A stretch of 64,000 nt of DNA from an uncultured Alphaproteobacteria bacterium. Lineage in GTDB: Bacteria > Pseudomonadota > Alphaproteobacteria > RF32 > CAG-239. The position numbers and the translations under genes are program-made. Location: positions 5,038-69,037 of the forward strand of contig CANRJO010000002.1 of the NCBI GenBank assembly GCA_947630965.1, given 5' to 3'. Shown one piece after another: positions 8,636-54,678 of the stretch (position 1 is the first letter of the stretch; every line of letters starts with the position of its first letter). A model generated the notes under the pieces. That model was not told the origin of the DNA and searched no databases. It saw only the letters and a program-made list of their open reading frames with translations.

Positions 8636-8675
8636 TCCTGGATCCTTCACTGCGTTCAGGATGACGGAGGGAGGG
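8636..8675. repeat. Short repeat element D (cctggatccttcactgcgttcaggatgacgg)
   Basis: Further copies at 25069-25105 and 25623-25660. Variants at 54483-54520 and 62546-62601. Confidence 0.7.
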
Positions 8676-24595: not shown

Positions 24596-24900
24596 TCTAA
24601 TGGACGATTCATCGTTCAAAAAGAGGATTTGAAATTCACGTACGCTTAAGGTCTTACTCGTAAGGGTTGCCAGAAATGGCAACCCTAACTCGTTTCGGTC
24701 ACTTGCTTTGTAAAAGTTGTATCGGTCGTTATCACTTCCTCACAACTTTAACAAAGCTACGCCGCTTGTGGTAAAAACAACCCGTCGGGGTTGTTTTTAT
24801 CCTCGCGCGCTAAAATTCCAAATCCTCTTTTCTCACTTCTACTCGCCTCATTATCCGCATTCCCGCGGACTATGAAAAAAAATAAGAATTAGTTTTTTAT
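24596..24900. repeat. Repeat element C (~300 bp); second copy at 43255-43560
   Basis: Long stretches near-identical to 43255-43560, for example ctaactcgtttcggtcacttgctttgtaaaa… and ttaacaaagctacgccgcttgtggtaaaaacaacccgt.ggggttgtttttatcctcgcg.gctaaaattccaaatcctcttttctcacttctactcgcctcattatccgc. Both copies lie directly after the stop of a +-strand gene (aspS, fabG). Confidence 0.8.
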
Positions 24901-25362
24901 CCTCATTCCCAAGGACTATGAAATAGCCTACTGACGTCATTCTGACGACCGTAGGGAGGAAGAATCCAGGTGGAAATAAATTCATCCTTATTGTCATGCT
25001 GAATTCGTTTCAGCATCTTCCTTATGAGATCCCGAAACAAGTTCGGGATGACATTTTGATTTCTTTTTTCCTGGATCCTTCACTGCGTTCAGGATGATGT
25101 TGTGTGCCTGTTGGCGTCTTGGAAGCAACTTCACGCGTGATGTCATAAAAAAATACTTGCAAAAATCAGATTTTTATTTAACATAAACCCTGCCGTCGTT
25201 GGGCGGTGGTGTTCACAAAACATCTTTACCAACTAAACTCCTTGTTAAGGGGAGTTTCCGATATAAGGCTTTTGCTCGAATAAGGAAAACTGACAGTTGG
25301 CAGTTTTGTGGCTCCCCACCTTTTTTATAAAGGTGGTTTTCTTTAACCTCAAGGAGCTGAAA

Positions 25363-25614
25363 ATGAAAATAAAAAACAAAGATCTGACACTTTACATCAA
25401 AAAAACAATGATGACGCTTTTTCGTGAAGAACGTATTAAAAGGGGCGAAACTCTGGAACAAACGGCGCGTAAAATCAACATTCCGCTTTATGAACTTGAT
25501 TTCTTGGAATGCGGAAGAGGCTGTATTTCTTGGAAAAAAATGATTGATTATTTAGAAATGTACAATAAAACGCTTAAAATTACTTTAGAAGACGACCCCG
25601 ATGAAAGTAGCTAA
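25363..25614 (+). CDS. Small HTH-like protein (putative XRE-type regulator), copy 1
   Basis: Start reassigned to the internal ATG at 25363, preceded by AAGGAG with 7-nt spacing. The segment LFREERIKRGETLEQTARKINIPLYELDFLECG resembles an XRE helix-turn-helix. Confidence 0.5.
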   Translation: MKIKNKDLTLYIKKTMMTLFREERIKRGETLEQTARKINIPLYELDFLECGRGCISWKKMIDYLEMYNKTLKITLEDDPDESS

Positions 25615-25915
25615 TTTGTTGCCCTGGATCCTTCACTGCGTTCAGGATGACGGACGGAGAGGGTTGCCACCATAGCAAGCTAACAATCGCGTGATGTCAT
25701 AAAAAAATACTTGCAAAAATCAGATTTTTATTTAACATAATCTCTGCCGTCGTTGGGCGGTGGTGTTCACAAAACACTTTTCTAGTAAACTCCTTAAATA
25801 AGGGGAGTTTCCGATATAAGGCTTTTGCTCGAATAAGGAAGACTGATTACTAGCAGTTTTGTGGCTCCCCACCTTTTTTATAAAGGTGGTTTTCTTTAAC
25901 CTCAAGGAGCTGAAA

Positions 25916-26176
25916 ATGAAATTAAAAAACAAAGATCTGACACTTTACATCAAAAAAACAATCATGATGCTTTTTCGTGAAGAACGCCTCAAAAGGGGCG
26001 AAACTCTGGAACAAACGGCACGCAAAATTGATATTCCGCTTTATGAACTTGATTTCTTGGAATGTGGGAAAAATTGCCTTTCTTGGCGCAAAATGATTGA
26101 TTATCTAGAGATGTACAATAAAACGCTTAAAATTACTTTAGAAGACGACCCCGATGAAAGTACCAACGACTTTTGA
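25916..26176 (+). CDS. Small HTH-like protein (putative XRE-type regulator), copy 2 (paralog of 25363-25614)
   Basis: Same RBS and start context at 25916. About 85% identical to copy 1. Followed by a hairpin terminator. Confidence 0.5.
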   Translation: MKLKNKDLTLYIKKTIMMLFREERLKRGETLEQTARKIDIPLYELDFLECGKNCLSWRKMIDYLEMYNKTLKITLEDDPDESTNDF

Positions 26177-26183
26177 ATAGAAA

Positions 26184-26217
26184 AGGCGTCTAGCAGACAC
26201 CTAGACGCCTTTTCTTC
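26184..26217 (+). terminator. Rho-independent terminator after the second HTH gene
   Basis: Hairpin aggcgtctag-cagacac-ctagacgcct followed by tttcttc. Confidence 0.6.
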
Positions 26218-26234
26218 AGGTTAAAAAAAACGGA

Positions 26235-26591
26235 TTATTCAACTGCAGGACTTCCATCAGCTTGATATACCGTTGTTATATCATCTTCTGTTGTTAGCAT
26301 GTAGCTGCCGTCAGCATATACATCGCAACACTTCAGGTTATCCGCAACCAACGAGCCATCCTCCCGATATAACGCCACGCGATCCGTTGCTTCCAACTTA
26401 TACCAACCGTTGGCATAAACATGTTTTTTAAAAAACTTGTCTATCAGAAGTGTTCCGTCAGGCCGATACATAGACCAACCATCCTCGGTTTCCAACATGT
26501 AGTAACCATTTTCAAAAATGTACTTTTGCTTAAATAACAAGTTGAAAAGCTCGCGCAAGTACCATCCGATTTGTTTTAAAATAGTTTTCAT
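26235..26591 (-). CDS. NGWY-repeat protein (three 33-aa repeats), member 1 of a tandem paralog array
   Basis: N-terminus MKTILKQIGWYLREL…. Repeats of the form C.V(Y/F).NGWY.L.T..G.ALYR.D.SLVAD.L. No signal peptide. Confidence 0.5.
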   Translation of the reverse strand: MKTILKQIGWYLRELFNLLFKQKYIFENGYYMLETEDGWSMYRPDGTLLIDKFFKKHVYANGWYKLEATDRVALYREDGSLVADNLKCCDVYADGSYMLTTEDDITTVYQADGSPAVE

Positions 26592-26662
26592 AATTATTAT
26601 TTTTTAAGGATTAAACAAAATAATTTTTTTCTAAAGAATATATTATTTTCTTTTTAGAAAGA

Positions 26663-26705
26663 AATCAACAAAAAACCTCCGAATACACCAAGTATTCAGA
26701 GGTTT
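26663..26705 (-). terminator. Rho-independent terminator downstream of the 251-aa NGWY-repeat gene
   Basis: Minus-strand sense: cctctgaatacttggtgtattcggagg followed by ttttttg. Confidence 0.6.
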
Positions 26706-26720
26706 TTGTTTTAAAAACGC

Positions 26721-27476
26721 TTACTCCATTATTAAAAATAAGGAACCATCATCCCGATAAAATGCCGTGCCGTCCGCCGTTGTGACTACAGACAAGCCTT
26801 TGCGCTGAATATGGCAATTTTGTATTTTATCAGCAATCAAGGCCTCATCAGCACCATACAAAGCTCTGTTCTCCGGCGATTCTAGAAGGTACCAACCGTT
26901 TTTGTAAACAAAGCAAAACAACAAATTATCAGCAACTAACGACTCATCTTTCCGATACAAAGCCATACCTTCTTTTGACTTTAATTGATACCAACCGTTC
27001 AAATAAACATCGCAATGCTTGAGTTTATCCGCAACCAAACTTCCGTCTGCGCGGTACAAAGTCGTGCCTTTCTTTGTTTGCAGAAAATACCACCCGTTAT
27101 GAAAAACATGGCAATCTTCCAAATGATCAGCAACCAAAGACTCATCAGCTTGATACAATGCAAAAGATTTATCTGTTTTCAGTTTATACCAACCGTTGTC
27201 AAAAACTTGGCACTTTTTCAGTTTATCGGCAACAAGCGAATCATCGGCGCGATATAATGCGGTTCCGTTTGCCGTTTCTAACGCATACCAACTGTTTGGA
27301 TAAACGTCACAATCTTTTAACTGATTGGCAACCAAGGAGCCGTTTTTGCGGTATAAAGCATTGCCACAAGCCGAGCGCAACATGTACCAACCGTTATCAA
27401 AAATGTACCTGTGTTTCAAACATACGTGGTAAAACTTACGTAAGCGCCACTGAATTTTTTTCAAAATAGTCTTCAT
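26721..27476 (-). CDS. NGWY-repeat protein (about seven 33-aa repeats), member 2
   Basis: MKTILKKIQWRLRKF… followed by about seven tandem 33-residue repeats, each with a single Cys, NGWY, ALYRADxSLVAD. Confidence 0.55.
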   Translation of the reverse strand: MKTILKKIQWRLRKFYHVCLKHRYIFDNGWYMLRSACGNALYRKNGSLVANQLKDCDVYPNSWYALETANGTALYRADDSLVADKLKKCQVFDNGWYKLKTDKSFALYQADESLVADHLEDCHVFHNGWYFLQTKKGTTLYRADGSLVADKLKHCDVYLNGWYQLKSKEGMALYRKDESLVADNLLFCFVYKNGWYLLESPENRALYGADEALIADKIQNCHIQRKGLSVVTTADGTAFYRDDGSLFLIME

Positions 27477-27616
27477 AATTATTATTTTTTAGGATTAAAC
27501 AAAATAATTTTTTTCTAAACAATATATTATCTTATTTTTAGAAAAAATCAATAAAAAAGCGTCTTCGAATAAAAAAACTCCGGATACCGATGTAACCGAA
27601 GTTTTAAGCTTTTGCG

Positions 27617-28177
27617 CTAATAATCTCTTTCTAACAACATGCCGTCAGATCGGTATAAAGCACGACCTTTTTTCGTTCTTACTTCATACTTTCCGTCAGC
27701 GTAAACATCGCACCACTTTAGTTTATTGGCAACAAGCGATTCATCAGCGCGGTATAATGCAATTCCGTTTGCCGTTTCTAATGCATACCAACCGTTGTCA
27801 TAAACATTGCACCAATTCAACTTATCAGCCACAAGCGATTCATCGGCGCGGTATAATGCGGCTCCGTTTGGCGTTCCCAACTCATACCAATTGTTGTCAA
27901 AAAGATTGCACCAGTTCAAATTATCAGCAACAAGCGAATCATCGGCGCGGTATAATGCGGTTCCATTTTTCGTTCCCAACTCATACCAATTGTTAATCCA
28001 AATATAGCAATAAGTCAATTTATCCGCAACCAAACTTCCGTCAGATCGGTATAAAGCCGTTCCGTTTGGCGTTCTTATAAAATACCACCCATTTTCAAAA
28101 ACATACCTGTCCTTTAAAAAATAGTCATGATAAAGCTTGCGCAAATGCTGCTTAATCTTTTTCAAAATAGTTTTCAT
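27617..28177 (-). CDS. NGWY-repeat protein (about five repeats), member 3
   Basis: Start reassigned to the conserved MKTILKKIKQHLRKL. The ORF track begins 8 codons earlier. The upstream leader is conserved with members 1 and 2. Confidence 0.5.
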   Translation of the reverse strand: MKTILKKIKQHLRKLYHDYFLKDRYVFENGWYFIRTPNGTALYRSDGSLVADKLTYCYIWINNWYELGTKNGTALYRADDSLVADNLNWCNLFDNNWYELGTPNGAALYRADESLVADKLNWCNVYDNGWYALETANGIALYRADESLVANKLKWCDVYADGKYEVRTKKGRALYRSDGMLLERDY

Positions 28178-28385
28178 AATTTTTATTTTTTTAATAATCA
28201 TACAAAATAATTTTCTTTCGGGGCGGATGTTAGCATCTTTTTTATGGAAATCAACAAAAAAATCCCAAGCAATACTAAAATGCAGCTCTTGGAATAAAGC
28301 TGTTACGTATTTATTGACTTATTTGGGCATATTTGGTAACATTTGAAAAAGCATTGTTCATATTGGCTTTATAAAATTATTCAGA

Positions 28386-54430: not shown

Positions 54431-54678
54431 CAAGGGGAAAATTTAGGGAATGTGCATGATGAGTAATTAGCTATGTTTTTTGTCCTGGATCTTTCACTTC
54501 GTTCAAGATGACGTACCGAGGCAGCCGCTCCTTTCTTATCCAAGTTTCGACAAGGTGGAGAACCGTTTAGATAGAGTGAAAAATAAAGCGGTAAAAATTC
54601 TAGCGTACTAAAAAAGGTACATGAATTTTGCGAGACCCGAAAAAACGGCTTTAGATGCGCCGCTATACGTCTTTCCAC

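Follow-up and report, generated by a model that had tools for sequence, protein, structure and literature searches.

The stretch of DNA analysed here (the window) is a 64-kb segment of contig CANRJO010000002.1 from an uncultured member of the Alphaproteobacteria, and it carries, downstream of aspS, two head-to-tail copies of a unit in which a long leader precedes the gene of a small protein predicted to have an XRE-type helix-turn-helix (HTH) fold. A repeat search within the window places the two copies 553-554 nt apart and resolves them into direct repeats of 94 nt (25134-25227 and 25688-25781, 96% identity), 300 nt (25246-25545 and 25799-26098, 91% identity) and 28 nt (25070-25097 and 25623-25650, 100% identity), while pairwise alignment shows that the units are alike from about 25134 through the stop codons. 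A preliminary description, made from the same sequence alone, had proposed a tandem duplication with borders at 25139 and 25691. Both methods bear out the duplication, and the borders are off by only a few bases, since the similarity begins near 25134 and the preceding ~36 nt, which separate the 28-nt element from the promoter block, are poorly alike in the two units. Probes of 27 nt taken from the leader find two sites only in the 64 kb, against a chance expectation of 0.

The order of elements is the same in both units: a promoter-like site, the leader RNA with its terminator hairpin, a Shine-Dalgarno (SD) sequence AAGGAG and an open reading frame (ORF). Each repeat unit is best explained as a self-contained transcription unit consisting of a sigma-70-like promoter, the leader with its terminator, an SD ~15 nt beyond and the gene of a small HTH protein. 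The promoter-like site of unit 1 (25157-25184, forward strand) comprises a -35 element TTGCAA at 25157-25162, a 16-nt spacer and a -10 element TAACAT at 25179-25184; that of unit 2 (25711-25738, forward strand) is identical, and all 53 nt of 25134-25186 match 25688-25740. The site scores 8/12 against the consensus, below the cut-off of 9/12 used in the promoter scan, and was read by eye. The block CTTGYAAA..TTTATTTAAYATAA stands at the same distance from the first leader helix in most of the distant homologues. We infer from this arrangement a promoter and a transcription start, which in unit 1 would fall at about 25187-25191. The spacer of both window copies contains the inverted repeat AAAAATC-A-GATTTTT.

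The two ORFs lie on the forward strand. ORF 1 (25363-25614, SD at 25351-25356) encodes 83 amino acids and ORF 2 (25916-26176, SD at 25904-25909) a paralogous protein of 86 amino acids that is 88% identical to the first; in both, AAGGAG lies 6 nt upstream of the ATG. The start codons at 25363 and 25916 had been chosen correctly in the preliminary description, as the same ATG and GGAG are common to all relatives and the in-frame TTG extension, which crosses the terminator, is not conserved; upstream extensions of the ORFs had been taken there as probably untranslated. The protein lengths given there (84-87 amino acids) were one residue too long. Unit 2 alone ends in a clean terminator, as had also been noted, in the form of a bidirectional terminator-like hairpin with a 15-bp perfect inverted repeat (26179-26215) that unit 2 has in common with a convergent gene at 26235-26591 on the reverse strand.

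Of particular interest is the leader, which is predicted from sequence and covariation to be a strongly structured RNA of ~155 nt ending in an intrinsic terminator. Copy 1 spans 25187-25344 (forward strand; covariance model score 139.5 bits, E = 5e-36) and copy 2 spans 25741-25897 (forward strand; 141.7 bits). Helix P1 forms the predicted 5' end (8 bp, 25190-25197 with 25202-25209 in copy 1; 25744-25763 in copy 2, both strands and loop). It is followed by P2 (9 bp, 25213-25221 with 25303-25311; 25767-25775 with 25856-25864) and P3 (7 bp, 25229-25235 with 25294-25300; 25782-25788 with 25847-25853), the latter differing in sequence between the copies on both strands. Next come the P4 hairpin AAACTCCTT..AAGGGGAGTTT, in which ACUCCUU pairs with GGGGAGU (25237-25243 with 25249-25255; 25789-25808 in copy 2, both strands and loop), and P5 (25256-25259 with 25284-25287; 25809-25840 in copy 2), which encloses the internal loop GAUAUAAG/CGAAUAA and a further helix, P5b. 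The 3' strand of P3 is flanked by invariant ACUG and CA, and an invariant GCUCCCC tract (25311-25317 in copy 1) runs into the terminator. The latter is a hairpin CCACCTTT..AAAGGTGG followed by TTTTCTTT, located at 25316-25336 and 25869-25889, with the stem of copy 1 formed by 25316-25323 and 25329-25336 and its U-tract at 25337-25344. In every copy the terminator stem has 8-10 bp, is GC-based and precedes a U-tract. The two hairpins quoted in the preliminary description both exist and correspond to P4 and the terminator, and its claim of a long, conserved, hairpin-rich leader holds.

Several lines of evidence argue for this fold. RNAalifold, applied to 13 sequences, recovers P1, P2, P5 and the terminator independently, with 20 of 38 pairs compensatory. 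MAFFT mis-registered P1 and P3, and an N-padded structural alignment was built instead and then re-derived with the covariance model. Among 12 non-redundant copies, the seven helices (46 pairs, 551 pair cells) consist of standard pairs in 99.5% of cells and 29 of the 46 pairs show compensatory double changes, although the alignment behind these counts was hand-fitted to the structure, which inflates such counts and weighs against our interpretation. No shuffled control reaches the observed pairing values (0 of 500), and pairing falls to 39-48.5% when the partners are slid by 1-3 columns. Despite the hand fitting, the fold is taken to be real because the complementarity of P3 is beyond chance, the minimum free energy (MFE) folds agree and the covariance model is selective. 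In particular, the 5' strand of P3, which lies ~70 nt upstream of its 3' strand, differs in sequence in almost every copy, copies 1 and 2 included, and yet its complement is found within a search space of ~15 nt as a perfect 7-bp match in 11 of 12 sequences, the exception being copy 1 with 6 of 7. The consensus fold is also what four diverse members adopt when each is folded singly by MFE (z = -2.8 for copy 1), and the covariance model scores 127-148 bits at every homologous locus for which upstream DNA is available. With filters off, it detects no further diverged leader copy in the window, for instance upstream of the NGWY-repeat or cysteine-rich genes described below; the next best score is 10 bits.

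Conservation is unevenly distributed over the structure. P1, P2, P3, P5 and the terminator covary freely. P4 is paired in 12 of 12 sequences, with five of its seven pairs invariant and the other two varying on one side only; the GCUCCCC tract shows no change that breaks pairing, and the P5 internal loop is conserved as GAWAUAAG/CGAAUAA. Three other readings of the leader were considered. An apparent local hairpin 'ACUG-loop-CAGU' belongs to long-range helix P3, of which it is the 3' strand. A second candidate, the local hairpin GGUGU/ACAYC, clashes with P2 and would serve as an alternative state only. A coding leader peptide is rejected because its frame differs between the window and the homologous locus L006 (L001-L024 are labels for the homologous loci or contigs compared with the window) and because the changes are compensatory at the RNA level.

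The preliminary description had regarded the leader as subsidiary to the gene. Our analysis suggests the reverse emphasis: the leader is structured, heavily covarying and better conserved than the protein, and it is recognisable upstream of proteins that are only 30-41% identical (L006/L007, L017, L021, L024 and L008). A scan of the window against Rfam 15 gave no family at the gathering threshold and only chance-level matches (E of about 1 or higher) at a permissive one, and seven homologous loci gave no consistent match either. We found no description of the leader RNA in the searchable literature. A catalogue of structured RNAs from the human microbiome contains many candidates near HTH-XRE genes (PMC8040213); strings from the leader are absent from the 200 of its 408 supplementary files that could be searched, and the leader may already be listed in the others. 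The leader thus appears to be a previously undescribed RNA family, whose fold and terminator are well supported by the comparative evidence, and which occurs only within a narrow group of uncultured Alphaproteobacteria.

The preliminary description had called the encoded proteins XRE-like, and this is borne out by structure prediction and by a profile-to-PDB search, although Pfam remains below threshold: its top-scoring model, HTH_25, reaches 17.1 and 15.0 bits for the two proteins (E = 0.005 and 0.022; gathering cut-off 24.6), and an NCBIfam scan of the HTH proteins gives no meaningful match. An AlphaFold2 model has four helices and a mean predicted local distance difference test score (pLDDT) of 78.8. 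All of the 50 best Foldseek matches in the PDB are XRE HTH proteins (among them HipB, DdrO, ClgR, C.Esp1396I and SinR; probability 1.00), the best with root-mean-square deviations of 1.4-2.3 Å over 55-64 columns and template modelling scores of about 0.6-0.85 relative to the target. The family profile matches DdrO (E = 0.0017) and ClgR (E = 0.02), and its PDB matches to these and other XRE HTH domains span E = 0.002-0.04 overall. These models support a divergent XRE-type HTH fold for the 83/86-amino-acid protein and make it a putative DNA-binding protein. In addition to the signature I-S-x-x-x-L-x-x-x-E-x-G, the family has a conserved W57 and a C-terminal tail Y-x-x-x-I-x-I-x-L-x-D that are specific to it. 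An exhaustive HMMER search of 1.84 billion representatives returned three clusters at E <= 0.001, and profile searches among 5.8 billion proteins gave 11 clusters in total, all metagenomic and none named. The single species-representative genome with the family is an uncultured alphaproteobacterial metagenome-assembled genome that carries two copies (L006 and L007).

The small XRE proteins that it resembles, such as the N-terminal domain of DdrO, HipB, ClgR, the controller (C) proteins of restriction-modification systems and SinR, share the predicted lambda-repressor-like fold and the signature, whereas the present family is distinguished by its sub-threshold Pfam match, its tiny size and the absence of a partner toxin, restriction-modification or protease gene. 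No such gene, nor any other conserved partner, was found in the flanks of the examined loci. A type II toxin-antitoxin system with a HipB- or HigA-type antitoxin is rejected, as the flanks differ in every locus and the units have terminators of their own, and a restriction-modification controller is rejected for lack of a conserved partner gene. In ToxIN-like type III toxin-antitoxin systems, an array of short tandem RNA repeats is followed by a terminator and an endoribonuclease toxin; the leader lacks short tandem repeats and the downstream protein is an HTH protein of 83 amino acids, and this assignment was also dropped. PADLOC yields a generic HTH match for one relative only and PHROGs generic HTH similarity, so that no defence system can be assigned. 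Among viral contigs, a loose sequence pattern gave 13 matches, none of which fits the covariance model at E <= 1e-15, and a specific pattern gave 0; a phage origin is therefore unsupported.

Comparison of the copies reveals a mosaic pattern. Copies 1 and 2 of the leader differ at 20 RNA positions, and from P5 through the SD they are identical save for a single change, in the linker on the 3' side of P5; the other differences lie only in P3, its linkers and the P4 loop. Their coding sequences are 90% identical, with 9 synonymous and 11 non-synonymous codon changes. At L006 and L017, which represent the same locus in close strains, the flanks and coding sequence show 5 differences in 714 nt, compared with 26 in the 164-nt RNA, a rate that is ~20-fold higher in the RNA core; 15 of these 26 fall in paired columns, with pairing kept. 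L023 combines the L006 RNA with an L007-like coding sequence, and L001 an L002-type RNA with a coding sequence of the copy-1 type, the latter on a short-read contig that starts inside the repeat and may be a chimera. Hypermutation had been entertained as the source of helix variability and was dropped for recombination in view of these two mosaics. The simplest reading of the sequences is that paralogous modules recombine frequently at invariant segments, and the tandem pair in the window would be a ready substrate for such recombination.

The genomic context also bears on the function of the module. The convergent gene that shares the terminator of unit 2 is the first of three paralogues (26235-28201, reverse strand; 118, 251 and 194 amino acids) built of 33-amino-acid (99-nt) repeats of the form 'NGWY...ALYR.DGSLVA', which have no meaningful match in Pfam or NCBIfam. 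The 118- and 251-amino-acid genes have in common a conserved 5' region with a palindrome, TTTCTAAA-N17-TTTAGAAA, at 26628 and 27512. The HTH proteins had been proposed as dedicated regulators of these NGWY genes and of nearby cysteine-rich loci. This is not supported, as the module occurs elsewhere in at least eight unrelated genomic contexts that lack NGWY genes and the palindrome, with housekeeping genes as its neighbours, namely fabG (L006 and L017), uvrA (L020 and L024), tgt and engB (L008), a TrcR-domain gene (L004), a HAD hydrolase gene (L001) and a 5S rRNA (L002). NGWY genes with TTTCTAAA..TTTAGAAA palindromes adjoin it at this locus alone, in the window and in its counterpart from a different sample (L005). 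The RNA and HTH gene together are thus an autonomous module. The only downstream gene seen that does not encode an HTH protein is in L010, where the same RNA (299-459, 137.8 bits) precedes an ORF at 486-1337 for a signal-peptide protein resembling leucine-rich repeat (LRR) proteins, of the BspA type as judged by eye.

Genes for cysteine-rich proteins lie beside or near the module at L002 (2-340, reverse strand), L003 (743-1198, reverse strand) and L017 (15270-15623, forward strand), those of L002 and L017 with signal-peptide-like N-termini. A loose association of the module with cysteine-rich secreted proteins is possible, and these neighbours may be no more than the reflection of a genome rich in such genes. 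At L021, a separate terminator-like hairpin AAAAGAGTTGC...GCAACTCTTTTTT (2400-2450) closes a long AT-rich region free of ORFs just upstream of the module promoter and may mark another small RNA. In the window, the 28-nt direct repeat is a palindromic element, CCTGGATCCTTCACTGCGTTCAGGATGA, resembling repetitive extragenic palindromes (REP-like). One copy (25070-25097) marks the upstream edge of unit 1 and the other (25623-25650) lies between ORF 1 and unit 2, with no T run after it. The element is dispersed, with an identical copy at 8637-8664 and one with three mismatches at 54484-54511, and at other loci it stands outside the conserved module. The spacer between aspS and unit 1 further contains a cluster of similar short GC-stem hairpins (24930-25060), and REP-like elements or short hairpins of this kind may have mediated the duplication. 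Also downstream of aspS are two 27-nt direct repeats, TTATCCKCATTCCCRMGGACTATGAAA, 89% identical and 46 nt apart (24851-24877 and 24897-24923).

What, then, does the leader do? From its architecture, we consider it on balance probable that the leader is a cis-acting gate on expression of the HTH gene, of the terminator-attenuator or riboswitch-like type. The RNA lies directly upstream of the ORF in 12 of 13 non-redundant copies, with about 15-25 nt between the U-tract and the SD. A second promoter would not fit ahead of the SD, and expression of the ORF therefore requires read-through of the terminator. In addition, the leader contains a chain of complementary segments: the SD GGAGC is complementary to GCUCC, GCUCCCC to GGGGAGU (the 3' strand of P4) and GGGGAGU to ACUCCUU (the 5' strand of P4). 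The GCUCC:GGAGC pairing can form in 10 to 13 of the 13 sequences. Because the SD is fixed by the ribosome, all members of such a chain would be frozen, which matches the observed conservation of P4 and GCUCCCC.

In the proposed mechanism, the default state would be OFF: with P4 closed and GCUCCCC free, the full terminator would form and GCUCC would mask the SD GGAGC, so that transcription stops, translation is blocked and an RNA of ~155 nt is released. In the ON state, P4 would open and GGGGAGU would pair with GCUCCCC right next to the 3' side of P2, either in an H-type pseudoknot or by refolding. This pairing would cost the terminator its two basal C-G pairs and free the SD from its anti-SD, allowing read-through and translation of the HTH protein. 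The fate of P4 would be set by the P3/P4/P5 three-way junction together with the conserved P5 internal loop, the two being the likely binding site for a hypothetical ligand or factor. Nested folds in which GGGGAG:CUCCCC is enforced lie 2.2-6.4 kcal/mol above the MFE, and loss of the two base pairs changes the terminator of copy 1 from -10.0 to -4.1 kcal/mol.

Pseudoknot riboswitches such as preQ1 and SAM-II provide a parallel, in that a 3' tail containing the SD or terminator bases pairs with a loop. More generally, the leader shares with terminator-type riboswitches and attenuators its position in the 5' untranslated region, a covarying multi-helix domain with invariant junction and loop nucleotides, an intrinsic terminator with an SD-complementary tract, and a segment (GGGGAGU) with two possible partners. 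It differs from known riboswitches in its lack of a match in Rfam 15 and in its downstream gene, which encodes an orphan transcription factor and has no metabolic or transport function; its alternative pairing is without covariation support, and binding of a candidate ligand is hypothetical. The stronger proposal, that the leader represents a new riboswitch class or an RNA sensor of a cellular factor whose output is an orphan transcription factor, with several recombining paralogous copies per genome, is accordingly one that we put forward only tentatively. In such modules, the rapidly changing helices P2, P3 and P5 might serve to insulate paralogues from one another or to give them specificity. 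The bearers of the module are probably host-associated members of the uncultured Alphaproteobacteria.

A number of observations weigh against a cis-acting gate. The alternative helices are pairable in 12 of 12 sequences, yet without double-sided covariation; as the positions concerned are invariant or vary on one side only, covariation neither supports nor refutes these pairings. When the alternative pairing is nested, the ACUCCUU strand that it releases pairs in turn with the SD, and therefore this state is not obviously one in which translation is on. The SD of L024 is weak (AAAGGAAAA) and cannot be sequestered by GCUCC. The regulated genes, an orphan HTH gene and once an LRR protein gene, give no hint about metabolism, an unusual situation for a metabolite riboswitch. 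A strong terminator with a 5' hairpin also fits a stand-alone small RNA (sRNA), and in L022 an RNA copy stands directly before another promoter and RNA, with no ORF between them.

The last two points lead to the view that the leader acts mainly in trans, as an sRNA with its own terminator, protected by P1 and using the CU-rich GCUCCCC and ACUCCUU tracts to pair with the ribosome-binding sites of other mRNAs, the HTH protein being made by leaky read-through. We regard this as unlikely, though the promoter-like site, the strong terminator and the stable fold would all suit such an RNA, and GCUCCCC, which adjoins the terminator on its 5' side, is left unpaired by the consensus fold. Positions 1-55 of L022 correspond to the 3' end of a leader (the 3' strand of P3 through the terminator) and are followed, 55 nt on, by a promoter, a full RNA (111-273) and an HTH ORF; this is, however, a metagenome contig of 676 nt in which repeat-induced misassembly is possible. 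The near-constant position of the RNA immediately before the ORF (the same 12 of 13 non-redundant cases) and the pairing of GCUCC with the adjacent SD point instead to action in cis. The nearest precedent is an alphaproteobacterial cassette of RNA and small protein, the CcsR or 'cuckoo' (ar14) sRNAs with the DUF1127 protein CcaF1 (PMC8034643). There, too, a single transcription unit joins a structured RNA, with CU-rich tracts resembling an anti-SD, to the gene of a very small protein, and the sRNAs lie in the 5' untranslated region in S. meliloti, at loci that are duplicated and rearranged (PMC8034643). The cuckoo RNAs, however, are hairpin pairs with CCUCCUCCC in their loops, whereas here the CU-rich tracts belong to a five-helix fold, one lying in a stem and the other in a single-stranded linker, and the cuckoo protein is DUF1127 rather than an XRE HTH. 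Membership of the leader in this group was rejected, since CCUCCUCCC is absent from all copies, the HTH protein has no DUF1127 match and the ar14 and cuckoo models of Rfam are not matched.

RNA and protein may alternatively form a cognate pair in which the HTH protein autoregulates read-through by binding its own leader RNA (at the P5 loop GAUAUAAG/CGAAUAA), the leader DNA or the promoter-spacer palindrome. Small XRE proteins commonly autoregulate, and all 11 protein clusters carry the RNA wherever upstream DNA is available. The two strands of the P5 internal loop are near-identical and would suit a dimer, and the DNA offers a direct repeat GAWATAAG at about +70 to +95 besides the inverted repeat in both promoter spacers. 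XRE HTH domains bind DNA, however, and RNA binding here is purely hypothetical; the proteins have diverged to 30-40% identity with hardly any change in the conserved RNA loops, and tight one-to-one specificity sits poorly with the reassortment of RNA and coding sequence between paralogues seen in L023 and L001. The spacer palindrome, moreover, is not conserved at other loci and the L010 RNA has no HTH gene downstream, and we consider such a pair, or its variant in which the protein processes or stabilises the RNA as CcaF1 does for CcsR, distinctly improbable. The gate, the sRNA and the cognate pair are not mutually exclusive. It is very improbable, by comparison, that the units are simply duplicated local XRE regulators of the adjacent NGWY and cysteine-rich genes, with leader hairpins that are ordinary mRNA structure. 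The units do adjoin three NGWY genes, two of which have a conserved upstream palindrome as a possible operator, and cysteine-rich secreted proteins flank L002 and L003. As regards the leader, this explanation is largely refuted by the 29 compensatory pairs and by a leader that is better conserved than the protein, and the many unrelated contexts described above count against it as well.

For annotation, these results imply that the long conserved leader calls for an entry of its own, as an RNA gene or element, and that the HTH proteins should not be assigned to the NGWY array. The support for the fold is sufficient for direct experimental work, in which the chain of SD, anti-SD and anti-anti-SD offers precise mutations. 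The mosaic copies show, in a compact natural case, how a regulatory RNA recombines by modules, its helices and coding sequences reassorting between identical flanks. To our knowledge, the lineage is known only from metagenomes and regulation in it is essentially unstudied. If the leader is a sensor, it would be a new class of structured RNA with an expression platform; its target, as is rarely the case, would be a transcription factor in its own right, giving a two-tier cascade from RNA to protein.

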